Positions 11,820-47,982 are shown, numbered from the stretch's first letter. The stretch is 58,950 bases of DNA from Gammaproteobacteria bacterium (GCA_024686195.1 JAIBDO010000002.1:1-58950); one strand, 5' to 3'. Notes: generated from the sequence alone by a model not told the origin. Numbers and translations are program-made.

Positions 11820-13073
11820 CTACCATAACGAAATGTCGGTAAATTCTGACACCATGGAACGATTGCGACCATTGTTCTTGGCTTCGTAAAGAGCCACGTC
11901 AGCGCGCTTGATCAGATCGCCGATGGATTCGCCTTTGACGATGGCAGCGCAACCAAGACTCGCCGTTATCTGGCCCTTATGGTTAAAATTCGTGGTAGCG
12001 ACGAGCTGGCGAATCGTTTCGGCGATAGGCAGCAAATCCTCTTCCTCAATAGTGGTGCAACAAATCAGAAATTCTTCACCACCCCAGCGGGCGACGAAAT
12101 CACTGCTGCGAATGGCCTTGTCAAATGTCGCAGCCAGCGTCTTCAGCACCTCATCCCCCGCATCGTGCCCAAACTTGTCATTGATCAACTTGAAGCGGTC
12201 GATGTCGAGCATGATGATGCCGAAACGCTGATTGTGGCGTTCGAAGCGCGAAAATTCCTTGTGCAGAATCTGGTTCATGTGGGTGCGATTGGATAAACCG
12301 GTGAGATTGTCGGTCAATGCCATGCGCGTCAGTTCATTTTTGTCTTCGAGTAATTCCTTTTGCGTGTCGAGTAGTGATTCGGTGCGTTCGTATATTTTTT
12401 CTTCCAGGTAAGTGTTCATATCCTGTAACTGACTCGACAGTTTGCGGCCATACCAGATCGCGATAAAGGTAACGGTCAGGCTGATGAGCACGGCAACAAT
12501 CGAAAACAGGGTGATCCGCGTGCGACTGCTTTGCGCATCCTGGCTTGCCAACAACATCGCCTCTTCGACATCCAGGCGTTGCATCTGGGTAAGCTCCGAC
12601 AGATGCGCCAGCAGTGGCACCGTTTTGGGTAGCACTTCCTGCAGAAGCACCAGGCTTGCCTCATCGCGACTGCCATTCAGGAACAGCACCGACACCTGCC
12701 GGTTGAGATCGCTGATCTCTTTGTCGAGATTATCTATTGCTTTCATGAGGTCATACTCGCGCGGTGCCAGCAGTGACTCCAGGCGTTCACGGGTGGCCGA
12801 GTAGGCGCCGCTCATGCGGCTGAAGGTTGGCCATGATTCATTCTCAATGAAATCGTTTTCGCTCAGCAACATTGATTGCATGAAGCGAGTTCGATTCTGA
12901 ATGATGGTCGACAGTTCGTTGATCAGGTTGATTTTCTGTAACTGCCCGGCAACCTGCAGATTGAACTGCGAACCGCCGCTATTAATGGACTGGAACCCGG
13001 TGTAGGCGAGCGCAATCATCAACAGGATGACAATGCCGAAGCCAATGGTTAACAAGCGAGTTGGATGATGCAT
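11820..13073 (-). CDS. membrane diguanylate cyclase (periplasmic 4-helix-bundle-like sensor + GGDEF)
   Basis: 417 aa with two TM helices flanking a roughly 160-aa loop, a coiled coil, then a GGDEF domain with active site GGEEF and an RSSD I-site 5 residues upstream (KAIRSSDFVARWGGEEF). Confidence 0.9.
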   Translation of the reverse strand: MHHPTRLLTIGFGIVILLMIALAYTGFQSINSGGSQFNLQVAGQLQKINLINELSTIIQNRTRFMQSMLLSENDFIENESWPTFSRMSGAYSATRERLESLLAPREYDLMKAIDNLDKEISDLNRQVSVLFLNGSRDEASLVLLQEVLPKTVPLLAHLSELTQMQRLDVEEAMLLASQDAQSSRTRITLFSIVAVLISLTVTFIAIWYGRKLSSQLQDMNTYLEEKIYERTESLLDTQKELLEDKNELTRMALTDNLTGLSNRTHMNQILHKEFSRFERHNQRFGIIMLDIDRFKLINDKFGHDAGDEVLKTLAATFDKAIRSSDFVARWGGEEFLICCTTIEEEDLLPIAETIRQLVATTNFNHKGQITASLGCAAIVKGESIGDLIKRADVALYEAKNNGRNRSMVSEFTDISLW

Positions 13074-15627: not shown

Positions 15628-16203
15628 TCAGTCGTGAGCGGCTTCGTCGTCAGTTCGCCATTTGATGTTGCACCCCACGCTTGGAATTTGCGTATTGCTG
15701 ATAGCCTTACCGGTGAGTAGTGCATCAACCGCAGCCTGCAAGTCTGCACCATTGACTGGTTCATTGTTGCCGGGCCTTGAGCCGTCGTACTGGCCGCGAT
15801 ATACCAGCCGGTGCGCGTCATCGAACAGGTAGAAATCAGGCGTGCAGGCAGCCTGATAGGCAACTGCGACCTGTTGCGATTCGTCGTAAAGGTAGGGGAA
15901 ATCAAAGGCGTGAGTACGCGCAAATTCTGCCATTTTTAGCGGGCTGTCCTGCGGGTAGCCTGCCACGTCATTGGAGCTGATCATGACGACGCCGAGGCCG
16001 CGCTGGAGCTCGGCGTTGGCAAAATCCACAAAGGAGTCAATGATGTGCAGAACATAGGGGCAGTGATTGCAGGAAAATACTACGGTCAATGGTTTGCCGA
16101 CGTAATCGTAAAGACTGACCTGCTTGCCCGTCAGGGGGGCAGGCAGGGTGAAGTCAGGTGCCTCGGTGCCGAGCTCCAGCATCGTTGAAGGGGTTTGTAC
16201 CAT
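15628..16203 (-). CDS. thioredoxin-fold protein (AhpC/TSA-like, CxxC)
   Basis: 191 aa: LPAPLTGKQVSLYDYVGKPLTVVFSCNHCPYV. Confidence 0.75.
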   Translation of the reverse strand: MVQTPSTMLELGTEAPDFTLPAPLTGKQVSLYDYVGKPLTVVFSCNHCPYVLHIIDSFVDFANAELQRGLGVVMISSNDVAGYPQDSPLKMAEFARTHAFDFPYLYDESQQVAVAYQAACTPDFYLFDDAHRLVYRGQYDGSRPGNNEPVNGADLQAAVDALLTGKAISNTQIPSVGCNIKWRTDDEAAHD

Positions 16204-16368
16204 GGTGGCGATTGCTCTAATGGAATCGGTCGGGATTATAACCCGAATCGAGGTGAGCGGTTAAGCTGGTCGACCTGATCGTAAACTAAAACGGGCAGGC
16301 TTTTTGTGAAAGAAATTAGCGCCGTTCACACCTATACTTACAGGCCCGAAATAAGATAGTGTAATTTC

Positions 16369-19300
16369 TTGGCGGCAAAACCTGACAATCAGCAGAAAAC
16401 TCCCTCTATCGAACAGTCGTTACGTGATGAGAACGCTACGCTGCGGGCGCAATTGGCCAAAGCACAGGACCTCATTGAATTCCAGAAGCATCGCCGTGGT
16501 GAATTATCGAGATTGCTCAAGGTTGGTTTCTGGGAATGGGACGAGCAGGAGCATCTGCCGACTTCCTATTCGCCGGACGTGGCCGATGTATTAGGGCTGA
16601 GTAATGCCCAACTGGAGAGGTATTATGATGATCCAGACGATTTTAAAAGCATTATTCATCCCGATGACCTGGCGCTTTACGAAGAGAACCTGAACGGACG
16701 CCAGCTGCTGACACCGGAGTCGTCGTGCGTCTTTGACTATCGCATTCTGCCAGACCAGAGGAATATCCGTTACATCCGAGAGTATCAGAAGGGCGTGTTC
16801 GATGGTGCCGGGCAACTGGTATCGAGTTTTGGAATCTTGCAGGACATCACTGAGGCCCGGCTCGCGGTTGAAGCGCTGCAGGAAAGCGAGAGGCGCTATC
16901 ATTCGCTGTTTGAACAATTACCTCTAGGCGTGCGCGAAGAGGACTACCGCGCGGTCAAAAAGGTTGTTAACAAGCTGCACTGCCAGGGCGTCGAGGATAT
17001 TGAGGCATACCTGCTCAGTAATCCTCGAATTCTGCGAGACATGTTGGAGCAAACCAGCATCATCAATGTCAACGAAACCCTGCTGCGCATGTATGATGCC
17101 GATAGTCGCGAAGCATTCCTCGCCAGCGAAGCCGATATGGATGATTGGTGGGACTCTCAGTGGGTCGAGTACTACGCGGCTGAAATTGCCGCTCTTGCCA
17201 GTGATAAAAGAATATGCGAGTCAGAACAGGTTGATTCAAAGATTGACGGCACCTTGTTCGAAACCCGTACCCTCGTTACTTTGGCCAGTGGTGACGAGGA
17301 TACATGGGCGCGAGTGATTACTATCCATGAAGATATTTCCAATCGCAAAAAAGCCGAGTCCGAACTTGTTGATGCGATACGACGGGCGGAGTGTGCCAAT
17401 CAGGCCAAGTCCGACTTCCTGTCGAGTATGAGTCACGAGCTGCGCACTCCTTTGAATGCCATTCTTGGCTTTGCACAACTGTTTACCTACGATCGCGGTC
17501 TTAGTGAGCAACATCTCGCTAACGCCAACGAGATAAATCGTGCTGGCAAGCATTTATTGTCGTTGATCGATCAGATTCTCGATTTGTCGCGAATCGAGTC
17601 CGGCGAAGCTGATATGTCACTTGAACCTGTATCGCTTGAACGCGTGTTCACCGACTGTGTCGCCTGGGTGAGGCCACTGGCACAGGAGCACGGAATAAAT
17701 ATCGAATGTGACCCGTCTCAGTTTGCTGCAATCAATGTGCGTGCTGATTCGATTCGGCTTAAGCAGGTATTTCTTAATCTACTCAGTAATGCGGTTAAGT
17801 ACAATCGCGATGGCGGGCTTGTTGAGGTTATTTCTAATGCAGTAGACGATCAACTGCGGATTGGAATTCGAGACTCCGGTGCCGGTATCTCCCCCGAAAA
17901 GCTGAAGGAGCTGTTTCAGCCCTTCAATCGACTGGGTGCCGAATTCAGTGGTATTGAGGGCTCAGGGATAGGACTGGTGATTTCGCGACAGTTGATCGAC
18001 CTGATGAAGGGCGCGCTCGAAATCGAAAGTGAAGTGGGGACGGGCAGTACTTTCTGGGTAAGCCTTCAACTGGACACGGTGCAGGCTTCTCCAGTCGGGG
18101 GCGCTTCCCTGGACCCCCACCTTGTTTCCGGTATGAGAGAGGACGACGAAACTCTGCGGATCCTGGTGGCTGAAGACAATTTAATCAATCAGGAATTGAT
18201 GACGGCTCAATTGAGGCTGCTGGGTTACCAGGCGGATTATACTGAGAACGGCATCCAGGCTCTGGCGCATTGGCAGCAGCGGAGCTACCACTTGCTGCTG
18301 ACCGATATTCGTATGCCGGAAATGAATGGGTATGAACTGGTAAAAGAAATACGCCGGCTTGAACCTGGCGATGGAAGCCGCACACCGATAATCGCGATTA
18401 CAGCCAATGCGCTTGCTGCGGATGTCGACAAATGCTTTAAAGCTGGGGTAGACGATGTCATTGCCAAGCCTGTAGAACTCGAAGACTTGCGCAAGACGCT
18501 GGAAAAATGGCTGCCCGCCGAGATACTGGCAAGGTCGAAACAGAATTCGTCTACATCAGTGGATATCGCAACACCCGAAGATCTGCCGGCGAACGCGCTG
18601 CCTGATGAAGTCATTGACCACGACGTGCTGGCGCATTCTACCGGTGATAAACCCGATTTGCACAGGAGTTTGTTGCGCTCTTACGCGGATGCCCTGGAAC
18701 AGGAGCTCGACAAGATCCAGCAGGCTTTTGCATGGAAAAACAGTGAGCAGATCGCCACATATAGTCACAAGCTGAAATCGTCCTCGCGTAGCCTTGGTGT
18801 CACCGATGTGGCTCTAGCCTGTGAGCGGCTTGAGTTAGCGGCAAAACAACAAGATTGGTCTGAACTGGAACAACTGATACCGCTTCTGCATCGAAGTAGC
18901 GGTAATGCACTGAGCTCGATCCAGAGCTTTATACAGCAGCGGCATGAACCGCTGAAAATGTTAATCGGTGAGGATGAGCGCGGTCTCGAGTTACCGCTTG
19001 ACGAAGAGGCGGACGTCACGCAGTTCAGTATAAAAGTGTTGCTGCTGGATGATGACTACATCATGCATCGCGTAACCTCGGTGATGCTGAACGATCTGGG
19101 TGTTTCGAGAGTTATAAATTCGATGTCGGGACCGGATGCGCTCGCTATCCTGAAAACCCAGAGCGATACCATCGATGTAATTATCTGTGATCTGAACATG
19201 CCCGATATGGATGGTGTCGAGTTCATTCGGCATCTCGCCGGAAGTGATTATTCGGGATCCCTGATCGTCACCAGTGGCGAGGATCTGCGCATACTGAAAA

Positions 19301-20226
19301 CAGTAGAGAAATTGGCTATCGAGCACGATCTGCACGTACTGGGTGTTCTCGAAAAGCCGGTGACGCCGACAAAGCTTGGCGAATTGCTCGATTCGCTGGA
19401 TCAGATTCAGCAGGAAGGCACCTTGCTGGTTTACGATGCCATCACCTTGCCGGAACTGGAGCGCGCCATTCAAAACGGCGAGCTGGAAACTTATTTTCAG
19501 CCCAAGATCGATATCGCTTCAGGGCGTGTTGTTGGTGTCGAAGCGCTGGCTCGATGGAATCACCCTGTCAAGGGGTTGATTAAGCCATACTCGTTTATCT
19601 CGCTGGCAGAAGACAACGGTTTGATCGGTGCTCTAACCGAGTCCATCTGCCGCAAGGCGATGGAGTATGCAGCAAGGCTGAAGGCGATGGATTATGAACT
19701 CAATATCGCTATCAACCTGTCGGTCGACTCGCTGAAAGATCTGGACTGGCCGGAAAAAATAACCGAGGTGCTGCGCGGTTTCGAACTTGAAGCGAGTAGT
19801 ATTTCTTTTGAAATAACAGAAAGTCGGTTGATGGAAGACGCATCAATCGCTCTTGATATACTTAGCCGCCTGTCGCTGAAACGCTTCAACCTGTCGATCG
19901 ATGACTTTGGCACCGGTTACTCTTCGATGGAACAGTTGCAGCGTATACCGTTTTCCGAGTTCAAGATCGACCGTGCCTTCGTGCACGGTGCGGCAAGCGA
20001 CGCGTCCGCACTTGCGATCCTCGAATCCAGTGTCCTGTTGGCCAAGAAACTCAAAATGACAGTAGTCGCCGAGGGTGTCGAAGATCAACAGGACTGGGAT
20101 CTGGTTGCGAGCCTGGATTGCGATCAGGTGCAGGGATATTTCGTTTCCAGGCCGTTACCTTTTCCACAGTTGCTGAAATGGTTGAACGATTTGAAAAATC
20201 AGAAACAATTTGTACCCGGCGCTTGA
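16369..20226 (+). CDS. cytoplasmic hybrid sensor kinase / phosphodiesterase: PAS-PAS-HisKA-HATPase-REC-Hpt-REC-EAL
   Basis: 1285 aa with a TTG start (no in-frame ATG for over 200 codons) and no TM helix. My residue count: H356 (SMSHELRTPLN); N-box NLLSNAVKYN about 470; G-boxes RDSGAGI and GSGIGL; REC1 D646 (LLLTDIRMP) and K700; Hpt H800 (YSHKLKSSSRSLG); REC2 D941 (VIICDLNMPDMDG) and K996; EAL 1058-1060 with DDFGTGYSS 1178-1186, EGVE and QGY. Confidence 0.9.
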   Translation: MAAKPDNQQKTPSIEQSLRDENATLRAQLAKAQDLIEFQKHRRGELSRLLKVGFWEWDEQEHLPTSYSPDVADVLGLSNAQLERYYDDPDDFKSIIHPDDLALYEENLNGRQLLTPESSCVFDYRILPDQRNIRYIREYQKGVFDGAGQLVSSFGILQDITEARLAVEALQESERRYHSLFEQLPLGVREEDYRAVKKVVNKLHCQGVEDIEAYLLSNPRILRDMLEQTSIINVNETLLRMYDADSREAFLASEADMDDWWDSQWVEYYAAEIAALASDKRICESEQVDSKIDGTLFETRTLVTLASGDEDTWARVITIHEDISNRKKAESELVDAIRRAECANQAKSDFLSSMSHELRTPLNAILGFAQLFTYDRGLSEQHLANANEINRAGKHLLSLIDQILDLSRIESGEADMSLEPVSLERVFTDCVAWVRPLAQEHGINIECDPSQFAAINVRADSIRLKQVFLNLLSNAVKYNRDGGLVEVISNAVDDQLRIGIRDSGAGISPEKLKELFQPFNRLGAEFSGIEGSGIGLVISRQLIDLMKGALEIESEVGTGSTFWVSLQLDTVQASPVGGASLDPHLVSGMREDDETLRILVAEDNLINQELMTAQLRLLGYQADYTENGIQALAHWQQRSYHLLLTDIRMPEMNGYELVKEIRRLEPGDGSRTPIIAITANALAADVDKCFKAGVDDVIAKPVELEDLRKTLEKWLPAEILARSKQNSSTSVDIATPEDLPANALPDEVIDHDVLAHSTGDKPDLHRSLLRSYADALEQELDKIQQAFAWKNSEQIATYSHKLKSSSRSLGVTDVALACERLELAAKQQDWSELEQLIPLLHRSSGNALSSIQSFIQQRHEPLKMLIGEDERGLELPLDEEADVTQFSIKVLLLDDDYIMHRVTSVMLNDLGVSRVINSMSGPDALAILKTQSDTIDVIICDLNMPDMDGVEFIRHLAGSDYSGSLIVTSGEDLRILKTVEKLAIEHDLHVLGVLEKPVTPTKLGELLDSLDQIQQEGTLLVYDAITLPELERAIQNGELETYFQPKIDIASGRVVGVEALARWNHPVKGLIKPYSFISLAEDNGLIGALTESICRKAMEYAARLKAMDYELNIAINLSVDSLKDLDWPEKITEVLRGFELEASSISFEITESRLMEDASIALDILSRLSLKRFNLSIDDFGTGYSSMEQLQRIPFSEFKIDRAFVHGAASDASALAILESSVLLAKKLKMTVVAEGVEDQQDWDLVASLDCDQVQGYFVSRPLPFPQLLKWLNDLKNQKQFVPGA

Positions 20227-20250
20227 AATCCCCCTGTTAATTCCCAAATA
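20222..20250 (+). promoter_or_regulatory. sigma32 (heat-shock) type promoter for the sHSP gene
   Basis: CTTGAAA (20222-20228), a 14-nt spacer, then CCCAAATA (20243-20250). The E. coli consensus as I recall it is CTTGAAA-N13/14-CCCCATnT. The -35 element contains the kinase stop codon. Confidence 0.55.
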
Positions 20251-20322
20251 GTTGAGTGCGACCACCATGTCTCTTTGAGAATGTTGGCGCTTACATTAAT
20301 TGCTTCATTTGGAGAATTTATT

Positions 20323-20790
20323 ATGAATACTATCGACTTGACCCCTTTGTACCGTAACAGCGTTGGATTCGACCGCATGGCCTCGCTGCTGGACAACGCA
20401 CTGCGCAGCCAGAAAGCCGGTGTCGGCTTCCCTCCCTACGATATCGAAACCACCGGTGAAGATCGCTACGCGATCACACTTGCCGTAGCCGGGTTCGAAG
20501 AAAGTGAACTGGAGATCCAGGTGGAAAACGGCGTGCTCTGCGTGAGCGGCAGAAAAGTGGAAGAGACGGAAGAGAAATCTTACCTCTATCGCGGTATTGC
20601 CAACCGCAGCTTCGAACGCAAGTTTAATCTAGCCGATCATGTCGAGGTTCAGGGAGCCGATCTGAAAAATGGCCTGCTGACCGTCAATTTGCTGAAGGAG
20701 ATTCCGGAGGCGATGAAGCCACGGACGATCGCGATCACTCCTGGTGGCGCTACCCTCGAGCATCAGCAAGAGGCGCGAAAAGTCGCCTAA
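20323..20790 (+). CDS. ibpA: small heat-shock protein (IbpA/Hsp20 family)
   Basis: I chose the ATG at 20323 (MNTIDLTPLYRNSVGFDRM...), which has a GGAG 9 nt upstream, over the track start at 20275. Alpha-crystallin core: YDIETTGEDRYAITLAVAGF...GLLTVNL. Confidence 0.88.
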   Translation: MNTIDLTPLYRNSVGFDRMASLLDNALRSQKAGVGFPPYDIETTGEDRYAITLAVAGFEESELEIQVENGVLCVSGRKVEETEEKSYLYRGIANRSFERKFNLADHVEVQGADLKNGLLTVNLLKEIPEAMKPRTIAITPGGATLEHQQEARKVA

Positions 20791-31505: not shown

Positions 31506-32918
31506 ATGATCGAGCAGGTTTCCAGCCTGGATAGTAATGAAGTGCTGGTCGTTGATTCCAACTACACACGTGGCCATTCTTTTCTCGCAGTTCTCAATTT
31601 CATCAAGGTGGATGCCCAGTTGGTGTCTCCGGAGCAACTGGCTGGAATAGCGCGTCGCGAACTCTACAACTATCTCGCCATCTTCAGCATTGGCGGCGAT
31701 GACATCATGCAGTTTTTCCTCGAGCGAAATCGGCAGGACAAGTGTAAGTACCCCGTGGTTTTGCTGGCCGACAAGTCTGACTTTAATTTACTGGAAATTG
31801 TTCTACAGCCGCCTTTTATCTCCGGCCTGTGTTTCCAGTCGGATTACTATGCGTTAGCGCAGGTTCTCGATCAGGCACGCATGCATAACAAGCGCGAACG
31901 GCGCATGCAAACGCGTGAATGCCAGCCGCTGATCGGTAGCAGCAATGCTATCGAGCGTATTAATTTAATGATTGATCAGGTCGCCGACACCAACGCTTCG
32001 GTACTGATCCTCGGTGGACCCGGCACGGGCAAGGAAGTGGTTGCAAGAAATATTCACGCGCAATCTGTGCGCAGTGCCAGGCCATTTGTACCGATCAACT
32101 GCGGTGCGAGTTCCGCAGAGTTGCTGGAAAGTGAGCTTTTCGGGCATGAAACGGATAGCCTTGCCGGAGCCACAGGTCCGCGCCAGGGACGTTTCGAGCT
32201 GGCCGAGGGTGGTGTGCTGTTTCTCGACGAGATTGGCGATATGCCGCTTGCGGTGCAGGTTAAACTACTGCGCGTATTGCAGGAGCGCTGTTATCAGAAA
32301 GTTGGGGGCAGTAGTGCCATTCCCACCAACGTGCGTATCATTGCCGCTTCCCATCACCCGCTGGAACGATTGATCGCAGAAGGCCAATTCCGCGAAGATT
32401 TATATTACCGGCTCAATGTATTCCCGATCGAAGTGCCGCCACTGCACAAACGCAAATCAGATATTCCACTGCTGATCCAGGAAATGATTACCCGCATCGA
32501 ACAGGATAATCGTGGCTCGGTGCGTCTCAGCAAGAAAGCGACGTCCATGTTGCAACAACATAGTTGGCCCGGGAACGTGCGCGAACTCGGAAATCTGATC
32601 GAGCGGCTGGCGATACAGTTTCCGCATGGCGTGGTTGATTCCAGGGATCTGCCGACAAAATATCAGTCGGCTGAAGCAAGCGATTCAGCAGGCCTGTCTG
32701 CCGCCGCAACCGCCCTGGCAAACTCGGTCGATTTCGAGCAGCTGTCCGGCGATGGTATCGATATGAAGCAATACCTGAACGATATCGAGATATCCCTGAT
32801 CCAACGGGCGTTGTTGAAAACCAATAATGTAGTCGCGCGAGCCGCAAGCATGCTGAATATGCGCCGTACTACCTTGGTCGAAAAGATGCGCAAGTACGAT
32901 ATCGAGCGCGCCGACTAA
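31506..32918 (+). CDS. FleQ-like AAA+ enhancer-binding-protein paralogue with degenerate GAFTGA loop
   Basis: 470 aa. FleQ-type N-domain ([20 protein letters not shown]), Walker [14 protein letters not shown] (170-181), Walker [38 protein letters not shown], and a Fis-type HTH ([12 protein letters not shown]). Residues 217-222 read DSLAGA (nt 32154-32171) where GAFTGA is expected. Confidence 0.85.
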
Positions 32919-40152: not shown

Positions 40153-42273
40153 GTGGATTCTGCGCAAGAGCAAGAATTTATAGAGGCGGCGACCAGCAAG
40201 TTCGGCTGGGACGAGCAGTTCACGCGTGCCTTCGATTATGCGATCAGCACAGGCCATAGTGATAAGCGGCGCCCGCGCAGCATCACTGTGGCGAACCGTG
40301 TTCTGCAACTGGACATGGATCGCGAAGCGGTGCTCGCTACGCTGTTGAGTGATCCCGGATTGCGCGATCTACTTCCGATCGAGAAAATTGAAACCGAGTT
40401 TGGTGCTACCGTTGCGGGCCTGACCCGGGGTGTTAATCAGTTGAACACCCTCAAGAACGGAAAACAGACGCGGCTCGACAGCCCGGAGCAGGCGGAAATG
40501 CTGCGGCGCCTGTTAATGGCGATTATCAGCGATGCTCGCGTTATGCTGATAAAGCTATGCTATCGAGTCGAGCGACTGCCGCTGCTGAAGCACGATGATT
40601 ATGAGCAGCGCCGTGGAATAGCCCAGGAAACACTGGATATCTTCGCACCTCTGGCGAACCGTCTCGGCATGGGCCTGCTCAAGTGGGAGCTTGAGGATCT
40701 GGCGTTTCGTGCGCTCGAACCGCAGGCCTATAAACGCATCGCCAAATTGCTGGAAGAAAAGCGCAGCGAGCGCGAGGTTTTTATCAGGGGCTTTGGCGAT
40801 CAGCTCAGGTCGCTGCTGGATGACCAGCAAATCAAGGCCAGCGTGCAGGGCAGGGTAAAACACATTGTCAGTATCTGGCGCAAGATGCAGCGCAAGAATC
40901 TCGAGTTTCACGAACTCTTCGACGTGCGCGCGGCGCGGATCCTGGTCGACAGTGTTGCCGATTGCTACGCCGTACTAGGTATCGTGCACACCACATGGCA
41001 GCACATACCGCAGGAATTTGACGACTATATCGCCAACCCGAAAGAGAACGGTTACCAGTCGCTGCACACGGCGGTAGCGACCGAAGATGGCAAGATTGTC
41101 GAGGTGCAGATTCGCACCCACGAAATGCATGAAAACTCGGAACTGGGTGTGGCCTCGCACTGGCGCTATAAGGAAGGTGCGCGGCTCGATCGGCGCATGG
41201 AGTCGAGTATCGCGCAAATGCGTGACCTGCTGCAGGGCTCCGAGGAAGAAGTGTCCGATGCCATTTCTGAAATTTCGACGGAATTATCCAACGATCGCGC
41301 CTACGTGTTCACACCGACCGGACAGATTGTTGATATTCCAATGGGCGGCACACCGCTCGATTTTGCTTACAGTATTCATTCGGAAGTGGGTCATCGATGT
41401 CGCGGAGCCAAGGTCAATGGCCGCATTGTCAACCTGACGACGGTGCTGGAAACCGGCGACGAAGTCGAAATTTTAACCACCAAAGAGAGCCGCCCTAGTC
41501 GCGACTGGATGAACAAGAATCTCGGTTTTATCAAGTCGGCTGGAACTCGTTCCAAGGTGCGTAACTGGTTCAATCACCAGGATTTCGAACAAAACCTGCT
41601 GGATGGCAAGTCCGTTTATGATCGCATGCTAAGTAAATTTTCGCTGCATAATGTTGATGTGAAACAGCTGGTGATGCATTTCAAGCGTAAGGACACGGAG
41701 CAGTTTTTTGCAGATATCGGCCGCGGTTTAATTACCTCGGCGCAGATGCTCGGGTTCCTGCAAACCGAACCCGAGCGCGACCCGTTCCGCAAAATCAAGA
41801 AAGAGGCGAAAGGTCCCGCCCCTAAAGATGAGGTCAGCATCCACGGGGTTGGAAACTTACTCACCCAGTTTGCGCAGTGTTGCAAGCCGGTACCGGGCGA
41901 CGCGATTGTCGGCTTCATTACCATTAACAGTGGCATCTCGATTCACAAGCGAAGCTGCTCCAATATTCTGTCGTTACCTGAAGACAAGCAGCAGCGCCTG
42001 ATCGAGGTCGACTGGGGTCAGCAGGCAGGAACAGTTTATCCGGTTGAGGTGAGTGTGACGGCCTATCAGCGAACCGGCTTGATGCAGGATATCAGTACTA
42101 TCCTGGCGAATTTGAAGGTGAACCTGCTGAACATAAACTCGAATACCAATCGTGATGAGCAGATCGTTCATACCCGCATGACCATCGAGATCCACAGTGT
42201 CGATGAACTGGTGGCGATCATCGATAAGCTGTCGCAAGTGCCCAACGTGCAGGAAGTCAGGCGCATCGCCTGA
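40153..42273 (+). CDS. relA: GTP pyrophosphokinase ((p)ppGpp synthetase I)
   Basis: 706 aa with a GTG start: ANRLGMGLLKWELEDLAFR...HIVSIWRKMQRK...DVRAARILV...YIANPKENGYQSLHT...IRTHEMHE. TGS and ACT regions are present. I see no HD hydrolase motif in the N-domain, which points to RelA rather than SpoT. Confidence 0.88.
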   Translation: MDSAQEQEFIEAATSKFGWDEQFTRAFDYAISTGHSDKRRPRSITVANRVLQLDMDREAVLATLLSDPGLRDLLPIEKIETEFGATVAGLTRGVNQLNTLKNGKQTRLDSPEQAEMLRRLLMAIISDARVMLIKLCYRVERLPLLKHDDYEQRRGIAQETLDIFAPLANRLGMGLLKWELEDLAFRALEPQAYKRIAKLLEEKRSEREVFIRGFGDQLRSLLDDQQIKASVQGRVKHIVSIWRKMQRKNLEFHELFDVRAARILVDSVADCYAVLGIVHTTWQHIPQEFDDYIANPKENGYQSLHTAVATEDGKIVEVQIRTHEMHENSELGVASHWRYKEGARLDRRMESSIAQMRDLLQGSEEEVSDAISEISTELSNDRAYVFTPTGQIVDIPMGGTPLDFAYSIHSEVGHRCRGAKVNGRIVNLTTVLETGDEVEILTTKESRPSRDWMNKNLGFIKSAGTRSKVRNWFNHQDFEQNLLDGKSVYDRMLSKFSLHNVDVKQLVMHFKRKDTEQFFADIGRGLITSAQMLGFLQTEPERDPFRKIKKEAKGPAPKDEVSIHGVGNLLTQFAQCCKPVPGDAIVGFITINSGISIHKRSCSNILSLPEDKQQRLIEVDWGQQAGTVYPVEVSVTAYQRTGLMQDISTILANLKVNLLNINSNTNRDEQIVHTRMTIEIHSVDELVAIIDKLSQVPNVQEVRRIA

Positions 42274-45578: not shown

Positions 45579-46154
45579 TTGTTTGAATCGATCTATAACG
45601 GGGTCATTAAATTCTCGCGCCGCCGCGAGGCGCCCTGGTACCTGTCGCTGCTCAGTTTTCTGGAGTCTTTCATTCTACCGTTTCCTCCGCCAGATGTTAT
45701 GCTGGCGCCGATGGCGCTGGCGAATCCCTCACGCGCGATGCGCTATGCCACCTTGACCCTGTTCTTTTCGGTGCTGGGTGGCCTGGTGGGTTATCTGATT
45801 GGCGCCTTCCTGTTTGATGTTGTCGAACCCTATATCATTGCATGGGGCTACCAGGAGCGCTTCGAGAAGGTCACCTTGTGGTTCGATCATTGGGGATTCT
45901 GGGCGGTGCTGGTCGCGGGATTTTCCCCTGTCCCTTACAAAATATTCACCATTTCCGCGGGCGTATTGAACCTGGCCCTGCTGCCGTTTGTGCTGGCGTC
46001 AATCATCGGTCGAGGCGCGCGGTTTTTCCTGGTGGCCTGGTGTCTTGCTACCTATGGCCCGACAATCGAATCGAAATTGCTACGCTACATCGAGTACATC
46101 GGATGGGCGGTTGTCGGTCTGCTGTCGTTGGCAATCGCTATCTACTATTTTTAA
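45579..46154 (+). CDS. YqaA/DedA-related inner-membrane protein
   Basis: 191 aa with a TTG start and 4-5 TM helices: LSFLESFILPFPPPDVMLAPM. Confidence 0.65.
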   Translation: MFESIYNGVIKFSRRREAPWYLSLLSFLESFILPFPPPDVMLAPMALANPSRAMRYATLTLFFSVLGGLVGYLIGAFLFDVVEPYIIAWGYQERFEKVTLWFDHWGFWAVLVAGFSPVPYKIFTISAGVLNLALLPFVLASIIGRGARFFLVAWCLATYGPTIESKLLRYIEYIGWAVVGLLSLAIAIYYF

Positions 46155-46171
46155 ACGCACGCAGTCCATTG

Positions 46172-46906
46172 ATGAGACCAGTTTTTGTCTACCTGATCGC
46201 TGTATTATTGCTCACTGCCTGTGCTACGCATCAGCAGGGGCAAAATAGGTCGCGTGGCCCAGGCTGGTACACGGTAAAGCTCAGCGATACGCTCTACTCG
46301 ATCGCCTGGCGTTACGGCCTGGAGTCGCAACAGCTGGCGAACTGGAACCAGATTGATCTCAATGAACCGATATACCCTGGGCAGCGCCTGCGCCTGGTAA
46401 AACCGCATAACCAGTCGACGCCGGCCAGCAGTACCGGGGCTGTTGTTAAAAAGAAGAGCAGCAAGCCTGCATCGAGTTCCGTCAGTTCGAGCAAATCTAC
46501 ACAAGGCAATAGTAGCCAGCAAGCCGCGCGACCGGACCCGGGAAAATGGATCTGGCCAACCGTTGGCAAACCGTTGAATACCTTCCTTGCTTCGCGACTG
46601 GACCGGCGCGGTATCGACATCGCTGGAAAGCAGGGTCAAGCTGTGCTCGCGGTTGCCGATGGCAAGGTGGTATATAGTGGTAATGGTTTGGCGGGTTATG
46701 GTAATCTCATCATTATCAAGCACAGCCAAACCTACTTGAGTGCCTACGCTTATTGTGAGCAACGGCTCGTGGAAGAGGGGATGTCGGTGAAAGCCGGCAA
46801 GAAGGTGGCCACGATGGGATCGAAAGATAATATCGCGAAGCTACATTTTGAAATTAGACGAAACGGTAAGCCGGTAGATCCATTAAAGTATTTGCCCAGG
46901 CAATAA
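46172..46906 (+). CDS. nlpD: LysM + M23-family murein hydrolase activator lipoprotein
   Basis: I chose the ATG at 46172 (MRPVFVYLIAVLLLTAC lipobox). LysM domain YTVKLSDTLYSIAWRYG, a Ser-rich linker, and M23 domain GIDIAGKQGQAV...GNLIIIKH...HFEIR. Directly upstream of rpoS. Confidence 0.87.
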   Translation: MRPVFVYLIAVLLLTACATHQQGQNRSRGPGWYTVKLSDTLYSIAWRYGLESQQLANWNQIDLNEPIYPGQRLRLVKPHNQSTPASSTGAVVKKKSSKPASSSVSSSKSTQGNSSQQAARPDPGKWIWPTVGKPLNTFLASRLDRRGIDIAGKQGQAVLAVADGKVVYSGNGLAGYGNLIIIKHSQTYLSAYAYCEQRLVEEGMSVKAGKKVATMGSKDNIAKLHFEIRRNGKPVDPLKYLPRQ

Positions 46907-46917
46907 GGAAGAGTTGA

Positions 46918-47982
46918 ATGACCAAATCGACCGATAAGTCACTTATCGAAGATACCGAAATAGCGCCGGAAGAGCTGGTTGAAGGCCTGGCCGATGACGA
47001 GGACGCAAGCGACGGCGATGACGACAAAACTGTCGCGACCGCCGACGATGACGATGATGATTCGGAAGAAGATGCCGGCGGTAAGAAGTTTGTCGACCGG
47101 CGCAAGCCGGACGAGGATCGACGTAAGGCGAGCACACGGCGTGCAACCGATGCTGATCCGACTCGGCTTTATCTGAAGGAGATCGAGGTTTCGCCGTTAC
47201 TGACGGCAGATGAGGAAAAGCACTATTCACGCCTGGCACTGGCAGGCGATATCACTGCGCGCGACAAGATGATCGAGTGTAACCTGCGCCTGGTGGTCAA
47301 GATCGCGCGTCGCTATATGAATCGCGGGCTGGCGCTGCTTGATCTGATCGAAGAAGGTAACCTCGGCTTGATCCGTGCAGTAGAGAAGTTTGATCCGGAA
47401 CGCGGATTTCGCTTTTCGACTTATGCAACCTGGTGGATTCGACAAACCATCGAACGCGGGTTGATGAACCAGACCCGTACCATCCGTCTGCCCATCCACG
47501 TGATCAAAGAATTGAATACCTATCTGCGGGCAGCACGCAAGCTGACCCAGGAACTGAATCGTGAAGCGACCTCCGAAGACGTGGCGAAGTTGTTGAAGAA
47601 GCCGGTCAAGGATGTCGAGAAAATGTTCAAGCTGGCGGATCGTGTCTCATCTTTCGATATCCCGATGGGCGGTGAAGGCGAGCGCCCGCTACTCGATGTA
47701 ATCCCTGACGAAAATAATACCGATCCAGCCAGCATTCTGCAGGATGAATCGGTGTTGAAGCATCTGGACAGCTGGCTTGACGAACTTGACGAAAAACAGC
47801 GCGATGTTGTTGTTCGGCGTTTCGGCTTGCGCAATCATCCGCGCGGTACGCTTGAAGAAGTGGGGCTTGAGCTTGGAGTGACACGTGAGCGCGTGCGTCA
47901 GATTCAGATGGACGCGCTGCGTAAGCTGCGTCGGATCCTCGAACACAGTGGCTATTCCCGCGAAAATATTATTGAAGAATAG
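46918..47982 (+). CDS. rpoS: RNA polymerase sigma factor RpoS (sigma38) with long acidic N-terminal tail
   Basis: 354 aa: TRLYLKEI...[57 protein letters not shown]. In the nlpD-rpoS context. Confidence 0.93.

Follow-up and report, generated by a model that had tools for sequence, protein, structure and literature searches.

The locus at 16369..20226 raises the question of whether one soluble protein can hold a sensor, a four-step phosphorelay and the c-di-GMP phosphodiesterase which that relay would control. The window (the whole stretch of DNA that was analysed) is 58,950 nucleotides long, and all features described here lie on its + strand. The gene at this locus is genuine and conserved, and its product is a single soluble protein of 1285 aa. 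It belongs to the chromosome of an uncultured gammaproteobacterium and is an ordinary signalling gene. The order within the protein is coiled coil, PAS, PAS, HisKA (H356), HATPase_c, REC1 (D646), Hpt (H800), REC2 (D941) and EAL.

Reading frame and gene neighbourhood

The initial annotation proposed a single uninterrupted ORF of 1285 codons without a transmembrane helix; an ORF check and a hydropathy scan confirm this. The highest 19-residue Kyte-Doolittle mean is only 1.27, in a stretch within the EAL domain; consequently, no transmembrane segment is assigned. Membrane anchoring is usual (if not strictly defining) in kinases of the ArcB/BarA/TorS/RocS1 type, and is absent from this protein. 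The ORF opens with TTG, as had been proposed, and closes with TGA. Orthologues share this start position, beginning with either MAAKPDK (ATG) or LTTKSDK (TTG), and an in-frame TAG lies at 16357, 12 nt upstream; a wrongly assigned start codon is thereby excluded.

On one side of the gene lies a peroxiredoxin gene and on the other a small heat-shock gene driven by sigma-32; this placement is conserved, and synteny is stable at 49-63% identity across loci L001, L002 and L081-L083. The downstream neighbour at 20323..20790 is HSP20/IbpA-like, as identified by Pfam (HSP20) and by the same synteny; its leader has no Rfam match. Its promoter, which belongs to this neighbour and not to the protein, is sigma-32-like by sequence and reads cTTGAAA-N14-CCCAAATA (20222..20250). 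The stop codon (20224-20226) overlaps the -35 element of this promoter, so the earlier observation of a stop codon inside a heat-shock promoter is correct as to the overlap itself. However, in L001 and L002 these promoter elements, again 14 nt apart, come just past the stop codon; the overlap is therefore not conserved, and it is ruled out as a regulatory feature and considered incidental. The rest of the 59-kb window was found to contain no free gene for a REC, HK or Hpt protein, and the conserved regions flanking the orthologues no free REC gene. A DNA-binding sister regulator was likewise not found nearby in the window.

Sensor, kinase core and output module

The domain reading of the initial annotation is borne out by Pfam, which detects HisKA, HATPase_c, two Response_reg stretches, Hpt and EAL; H356, D646, H800, D941 and the EAL motifs are all found where they had been placed.

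The protein begins with a long helix, probably a coiled coil in the AlphaFold2 model (residues 14-50; 16408..16518), in which L25 and L29 are invariant in an alignment of 35 orthologues. PAS1 (residues 52-159; 16522..16845) is identified by a Pfam PAS_3 match to residues 66-152 which scores at the cut-off (25.6 bits), by the AlphaFold2 model and by a Foldseek match to the FixL tandem PAS; its HPDD motif (H97, D100) is invariant. The second PAS-like domain, which has a helical insert (residues 187-322; 16927..17334), has no Pfam match and is identified from the AlphaFold2 model (pLDDT > 90) and Foldseek. Four tryptophans in this domain (W260, W261, W265 and W313) are invariant among the 35 orthologues. 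The two PAS-like regions of the initial annotation are thus both recovered, one by Pfam and the other by structure prediction.

For the N-terminal part, structure prediction gives a tandem PAS fold at high confidence; the AlphaFold2 model of residues 1-345 has a mean pLDDT of 89.4 and contains the coiled coil and both PAS domains within the boundaries given above. The top Foldseek matches to this part, and its best structural match, are the FixL tandem PAS structures 8JS5/8JS6 (E ~1e-13, target TM-score 0.73-0.76), with ~300 aligned columns; identity is only 15-17%, and the likeness is one of fold only. FixL-like haem binding by PAS2 was considered and dropped, as the 35-orthologue alignment has no conserved His in PAS2 at the haem-binding place of FixL. 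Haem binding is therefore not proposed.

The kinase core follows. HisKA (DHp; residues 346-412; 17404..17604; Pfam E = 2.5e-18) carries H356 (codon 17434-17436) in the motif SHELRTPLN, which is at least 90% conserved in the 35 orthologues; 34 distant fused relatives all have the His. HATPase_c (residues 460-569; 17746..18075; Pfam E = 9e-26) contains the N (NLLSNAVKYN), G1 (DSGAGI), F (FQPFNR) and G2 (GSGIGL) boxes, and these ATP-binding boxes are conserved in both alignments. REC1 (residues 598-711; 18160..18501), the better of the two Pfam Response_reg stretches, has the acidic pair ED, D646 (codon 18304-18306), the T of AITAN and the K of AKP, conserved in orthologues and distant fused relatives alike. 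Hpt (residues 768-837; 18670..18879; Pfam E = 1.5e-11) carries H800 (codon 18766-18768) within HKLKSSS; this His is at least 90% conserved among the orthologues and invariant among the distant relatives. The protein thus has the H-box His of HisKA, the HATPase_c boxes, the receiver Asp and then the Hpt His which characterise unorthodox kinases of the ArcB/BarA/TorS/RocS1 type, and the TorS model TIGR02956 matches residues 336-831. With one kinase, two receivers and one Hpt, it also has the composition of a single-chain four-domain phosphorelay (HKRR1HPtRR2).

The Hpt and second receiver are joined by a variable acidic linker (18880..19029), the fusion junction, whose columns are unconserved among the 35 orthologues until the conserved TQFSIK; its position coincides with the gene boundary in split relatives. 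REC2 (approximately residues 888-1005; 19030..19383) aligns with the receiver domain of RocR and conserves DDD, D941 (codon 19189-19191), TSG and EKP. The EAL domain (residues 1029-1262; 19453..20154; Pfam E = 1e-67) aligns to RocR, MucR and DosP and contains EAL at 1058, EITES at 1148, DDFGTGYSS at 1178, KID at 1199, EGVE at 1235 and QGY at 1255. These motifs are conserved; judged by them, the c-di-GMP phosphodiesterase domain is catalytically complete, as had been claimed.

Receiver and EAL together resemble a known regulator. Residues 888-1271 align end to end with residues 4-388 of RocR (3SY8; E = 2.8e-60), and D941 pairs with RocR D56. The NCBIfam PvrR model covers residues 887-1273 with 335 bits; since this is below the equivalog cut-off of 580, the protein is considered a homologue and not an orthologue of PvrR. 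As in RocR, PvrR and VieA, a receiver with a phospho-acceptor Asp directly precedes an EAL domain with a competent motif set, including loop 6. Those proteins are stand-alone regulators with a separate kinase; here, a single ORF encodes both the REC-EAL module and its presumed kinase.

Among the 35 orthologues, conservation reaches at least 90% at each of the four phospho-acceptors and at the catalytic residues of the EAL domain (E of EAL, N, ExxE, DD, K, ExxE, Q). In the 34 distant fused relatives (29-44% identity) the same residues are invariant, except for the second Asp of DD (at least 90%). Sequence comparison at both distances shows that the catalytic and phospho-acceptor residues are intact and under purifying selection.

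Proposed signalling route

The likely and best explanation for this architecture is a self-contained PAS sensor and four-step relay which would control its own RocR-type EAL domain. The protein would be cytoplasmic, probably a dimer, and would sense a signal and set c-di-GMP degradation by itself. An intracellular signal acting on the tandem PAS domains would set the autokinase activity; phosphate would then pass from H356 to D646, H800 and D941. The attached EAL domain, which would cut c-di-GMP to pGpG, would be modulated according to whether REC2 is phosphorylated. From the sequence we infer the signal, the kinase activity, the order of transfer and its geometry (in cis, or in trans within the dimer), together with an effect of REC2 phosphorylation on the phosphodiesterase, whether raising or lowering its activity. 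It is plausible, as initially suggested, that transfer might stay entirely within one molecule or dimer and be shielded from cross-talk.

A more specific role can be put forward only tentatively, and is doubtful. Forcing the relay into one dimer might create a private switch from sensor to c-di-GMP, beyond the reach of other kinases and regulators, in which the extra steps would be built-in control points (e.g. delay or threshold) and not branch points. The position beside the peroxiredoxin and small heat-shock genes might then tie the protein to oxidative or proteotoxic stress through its unusual Trp-rich PAS2.

The protein has the domain chain of the RocS1/RocR and PvrS/PvrR systems of Pseudomonas aeruginosa: HisKA-HATPase-REC-Hpt, then REC-EAL. 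Judged by its domains, it is the fused form of what is elsewhere an operon pair of an unorthodox HK-REC-Hpt kinase and a REC-EAL regulator. The comparison with RocS1 and RocR in the initial annotation is therefore correct: the C-terminal 400 aa align with RocR end to end, and split relatives exist. In contrast to this single chain, the Pseudomonas systems consist of two separate proteins; a further difference is that the query has no DNA-binding sister regulator nearby. The sensors also differ; Roc kinases are drawn with a periplasmic SBP_bac_3 domain and PAS_4 (PMC12051241), while the query has a cytoplasmic tandem PAS.

The same systems suggest a branched alternative, in which the Hpt would also feed free response regulators (one or several) from genes elsewhere; REC2-EAL would then be one output, or a competing phosphate sink (as RocR opposes RocA1), and the relay would not be insulated. 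Hpt domains offer REC domains a general docking surface. Within the Roc system a single kinase serves several regulators, with RocR among the targets of both RocS1 and RocS2 (PMC12051241), so the fused Hpt need not be private. Against this stand the lack of a free REC gene in the 59-kb window and in the conserved orthologue flanks, and tethering, which would enormously raise the local concentration of REC2. Branching is considered unlikely.

Another alternative is a phosphodiesterase which is constitutive or otherwise controlled; its EAL domain would be active in any phosphorylation state, like that of isolated RocR, with the kinase part acting mainly as a phosphatase or scaffold, or setting oligomeric state or location. 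Purified RocR routinely serves as an active phosphodiesterase without a phosphorylation step (PMC13501900), so receiver phosphorylation may merely tune the enzyme or even inhibit it. However, conservation of all four phospho-acceptors and of the ATP-binding boxes down to ~30% identity is hard to explain if the relay has no effect on output, which makes this reading improbable.

It is more improbable still that the EAL domain has degenerated into a c-di-GMP receptor. Many EAL domains, among them those of FimX and LapD, act as receptors, and FimX-type chains occur among the weak matches; here, however, loop 6 (DDFGTGYSS) and all the catalytic and metal-binding motifs are intact and conserved.

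All-in-one fusion is known from the hybrid two-component systems (HTCS) of Bacteroides, in which sensor, kinase, receiver and output are joined in one protein and signalling is free of partners. These proteins sit in the membrane, sense through a periplasmic domain, transfer phosphate in two steps (His-Asp) without an Hpt, and have an AraC-type DNA-binding output; in these respects they differ from the protein described here.

Fused and split relatives

The best 120 matches are all close relatives; at least 120 protein clusters of 50-96% identity, from many separate assemblies, have one ORF with the same Pfam families. Their sources (ENA, JGI, NCBI and Logan data) were assembled independently of one another; ORF length is ~1260-1310 aa, with all domains present. 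The single ORF is also seen directly at loci L001, L002 and L081-L083. Since independent assemblies keep one ORF, a chance ORF or assembly artefact is excluded; this also answers the earlier concern that a stop or frameshift had been missed near 19000. An artefactual fusion of adjacent HK-REC-Hpt and REC-EAL genes by missed stop, frameshift or chimeric assembly, suggested by split neighbours in other lineages and by overlapping frames at L006, is effectively refuted by these clusters and loci.

The split form itself is found at L005 and L006, where an HK-REC-Hpt gene adjoins a separate REC-EAL gene; at L006 the two frames overlap. Split forms lie among fused ones in a neighbour-joining tree of REC-EAL modules, which is indicative only.

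The initial annotation implied that the architecture is rare, and this does not hold. A GTDB genome scan yielded only three orthologous loci (L001-L003), the remainder being mostly plain hybrid kinases, and is unable to gauge rarity; rarity was therefore judged from a search of 50%-identity representatives. A kinase and terminal REC-EAL occur on one chain in 103 of the 150 best cluster representatives, behind varied sensors. All 34 fused representatives scanned with Pfam carry HisKA, HATPase_c, REC, Hpt and EAL. Dozens of representatives align in one stretch over residues 1-945 of the 956-residue search query, with a collinear HisKA-HATPase_c-REC-Hpt-REC-EAL core.

Two isolates of Betaproteobacteria provide examples from outside the uncultured gammaproteobacterial lineage of the query: Vogesella oryzagri (WP_349589461.1) and Chitinibacter fontanus (WP_180307053.1). 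Over one alignment stretch their HisKA-to-EAL core is collinear with the query, with 36-38% identity. Neither lacks any of the five Pfam families, and the phospho-sites and catalytic residues are nearly all invariant. They differ in a far longer N-terminus with other sensor modules (1905 aa and 2058 aa in total, respectively).

The class has also been catalogued. The census of Salvado et al. 2015 (PMC4558063) lists 982 proteins in 618 species as type HKRR1HPtRR2, a single chain with one kinase, two receivers and one Hpt like the query; output domains are unrecorded there, so the census is mute on EAL. A 2022 survey (PMC9756655) describes, in Caulobacterales and Rhizobiales, proteins which combine EAL with kinase and Hpt domains. 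No characterised fused HK-REC-Hpt-REC-EAL protein was found in the literature, nor a paper with a domain string such as 'REC-Hpt-REC'. The protein is thus a further member of a widespread, catalogued fused class of which no member has apparently been studied at the bench.

The existence of this gene does not challenge current ideas; its interest lies in a fused class which is abundant, yet seemingly never studied experimentally. A soluble member without a membrane segment would lend itself well to studying how phosphorylation of a RocR-type receiver alters EAL activity, and whether a tethered four-step relay works in cis or in trans within a dimer.

Domain content and genuineness of the fusion

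The kinase-EAL gene (16369..20226 (+)) is one ORF of 1285 codons with a TTG start codon; an in-frame TAG lies 12 nt 5' of the start. No membrane helix is expected because the highest hydropathy mean over 19 residues is only 1.27, in line with the single soluble chain originally described. Pfam places PAS_3 at residues 66-152 (score equal to the cut-off), HisKA at 346-412, HATPase_c at 460-569, two Response_reg stretches (best 598-711), Hpt at 768-837 (E = 1.5e-11) and EAL at 1029-1262 (E = 1e-67). NCBIfam assigns a TorS/ArcB/BarA-like section (336-831) and a PvrR-like REC-EAL section (887-1273); the PvrR score of 335 bits is below the equivalog cut-off of 580. The phospho-sites named in the initial annotation are in place (H356 in SHELRTP, D646, H800 in HKLKSSS and D941), as are the EAL-domain motifs EAL 1058, EITES 1148, DDFGTGYSS 1178, KID 1199, EGVE 1235 and QGY 1255. 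Its observation and structural reading of the protein are thus confirmed.

The second PAS-like region has no match in a Pfam search of the protein. An AlphaFold2 model of residues 1-345, with 35 orthologues as input (mean pLDDT 89.4), contains a long helix (14-50), PAS1 (52-159) and PAS2 (187-322). Its top Foldseek matches are the FixL tandem PAS domains (8JS5/8JS6), over ~300 aligned columns; both PAS-like regions first described are therefore supported. The second domain also has a helical insert (residues 254-270; window 17140-17170 (+)) with invariant tryptophans W260, W261 and W265 in DDWWDSQW; W313 is a further invariant tryptophan of this domain. We know of no PAS cofactor or ligand site like this tryptophan-rich insert.

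A missed stop or frameshift at the Hpt/REC2 junction had been considered initially; the one-ORF form in orthologues argues against this. It is found in at least 120 homologous clusters (50-96% identity) from ENA, JGI, NCBI and Logan assemblies. Those listed are almost all 1220-1330 aa long, and each is annotated with HisKA, HATPase_c, Response_reg, Hpt and EAL. The one-ORF form is directly visible in the orthologous loci L001 (49% identity), L002 (62%) and L081-L083 (63%). Orthologues share the start position, with ATG in some (MAAKPDK...) and TTG in others, which makes the TTG start credible. Across 35 aligned orthologues, conservation reaches at least 90% at the four phospho-acceptors, the ATP-binding boxes and every EAL catalytic residue. 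The Hpt-REC2 linker (about residues 838-887) varies, which fits a former gene boundary. The fusion of the kinase relay with REC-EAL is genuine.

Distribution and relation to RocS1/RocR

The initial annotation implied that this architecture is rare, which does not hold. In a search of residues 330-1285 against single representatives of 50%-identity clusters, a kinase core and terminal REC-EAL were found on one chain in 103 of the 150 best representatives. Dozens of representatives align in one collinear stretch over query positions 1-945 (32-50% identity), with N-terminal extensions of 0 to >1100 residues. HisKA, HATPase_c, Response_reg, Hpt and EAL are present in all 34 fused representatives scanned with Pfam; sensor modules differ among them (PAS, GAF, dCache_1, HAMP, CHASE, CHASE8, MASE3, CHASE5). 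In these proteins the four phospho-sites and the EAL catalytic residues are invariant, with one exception: the second Asp of the DD pair is at least 90% conserved. Two are RefSeq proteins of cultured Betaproteobacteria, Vogesella oryzagri (WP_349589461.1) and Chitinibacter fontanus (WP_180307053.1).

The published record agrees that the fused form is not rare. A 2015 census, which did not record output domains, counted 982 HKRR1HPtRR2 proteins in 618 species and 8% of proteomes (PMC4558063); a 2022 survey notes that EAL proteins in Caulobacterales, and in some Rhizobiales, typically also carry HisKA, HATPase and Hpt domains (PMC9756655). The kinase-EAL architecture is already catalogued and widespread.

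The last 400 residues align end-to-end with RocR (3SY8; E = 2.8e-60); RocR phospho-acceptor D56 aligns with D941 and every catalytic motif matches. A genome scan showed that other lineages carry the split form. L005 (Competibacteraceae) has a REC-HisKA-HATPase-REC-Hpt gene (890 aa) with a REC-EAL gene (406 aa) immediately after it; the L006 counterpart, CHASE3-PAS-HisKA-HATPase-REC-Hpt (870 aa), overlaps the 5' end of its REC-EAL neighbour (415 aa). The likeness to the RocS1/RocR pair drawn initially is borne out by the RocR match and these split pairs; the window protein is therefore a fused RocS1/RocR-type pair. L004, L005 and L006, all of them split, fall among fused forms in a crude neighbour-joining tree built from REC-EAL modules, which hints that fusion or fission may have happened repeatedly. 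A Burkholderiales MAG locus (L007, 709-2772 (+)) encodes a 687-aa REC-EAL-EAL protein, with one receiver followed by tandem EAL domains.

Genomic neighbourhood

The gene sits in an ordinary gammaproteobacterial chromosomal core region (window GC content 53.6%) holding queA, tgt, secDF, ispG, a dus gene, hom, thrC, rlmN and hisS, with a relA/spoT-family gene at 40153-42273. A LysM-M23 peptidase gene directly followed by a sigma-70-family gene (45842-47982 (+)) is probably the nlpD-rpoS pair, judged by gene order. Apart from the kinase-EAL gene, no ORF with REC, HK, Hpt or EAL turned up in a phmmer scan of the window. In a sigma-54 activator (31506-32918 (+)) with AAA+ and HTH_8 domains, the first 140 residues gave no Pfam match at E <= 1e-5 and no sign of a receiver.

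Upstream, a divergent AhpC/TSA peroxiredoxin gene (15628..16203 (-)) shares the intergenic region with the kinase-EAL gene, and an alpha/beta-hydrolase gene lies beyond it. The peroxiredoxin neighbour is kept in L002 and L081-L083; in L081-L083 an amine-oxidase gene is inserted between the two. Some 3 kb upstream of the kinase-EAL gene, a 4HB_MCP-GGDEF gene (11820..13073 (-)) encodes a membrane diguanylate cyclase. Neighbour gene order is maintained in the orthologous loci at 63% identity, where the cyclase gene is also syntenic; its product could counteract the EAL enzyme within a shared c-di-GMP circuit.

The next gene downstream encodes HSP20 (20323..20790 (+)) and is preceded by a sigma-32-like promoter, cTTGAAA-N14-CCCAAATA (20222-20250 (+)). 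No terminator-like site was seen between it and the kinase-EAL gene. The promoter is conserved with identical 14-nt spacing in L001 and L002; there it falls after the kinase-gene stop codon, so the stop codon/promoter overlap in the window is just tight packing. The HSP20 5' leader is conserved in four loci (window 20256-20322 (+); L002 9856-9935; L001 5112-5204; L081 11840-11912). It is predicted to form two hairpins. In the second, a short CUUC/GGAG stem, the Shine-Dalgarno sequence is paired, an arrangement known from RNA thermometers of the short ROSE-like or Pseudomonas ibpA type. The leader matches no Rfam family, and its single-sequence folding z-score is only -1.0.

Proposed mechanism and significance

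A mechanism can be proposed from domain biology. An intracellular cue would act through the PAS pair to control autophosphorylation at H356; phosphate would then pass from H356 to D646, H800 and D941, and the state of REC2 would modulate the EAL domain, either up or down. A parallel dimer formed via the coiled coil and HisKA may also place two EAL domains side by side. Even when unphosphorylated, RocR works in vitro and serves as a tool enzyme (PMC13501900). Putative insulation of the fused relay from cross-talk is plausible because its domains are tethered, but the Roc kinases serve several regulators (PMC12051241).

Literature searches found no experimental study of any fused member. The chief value of the window protein is as a soluble model for this unstudied fused class.
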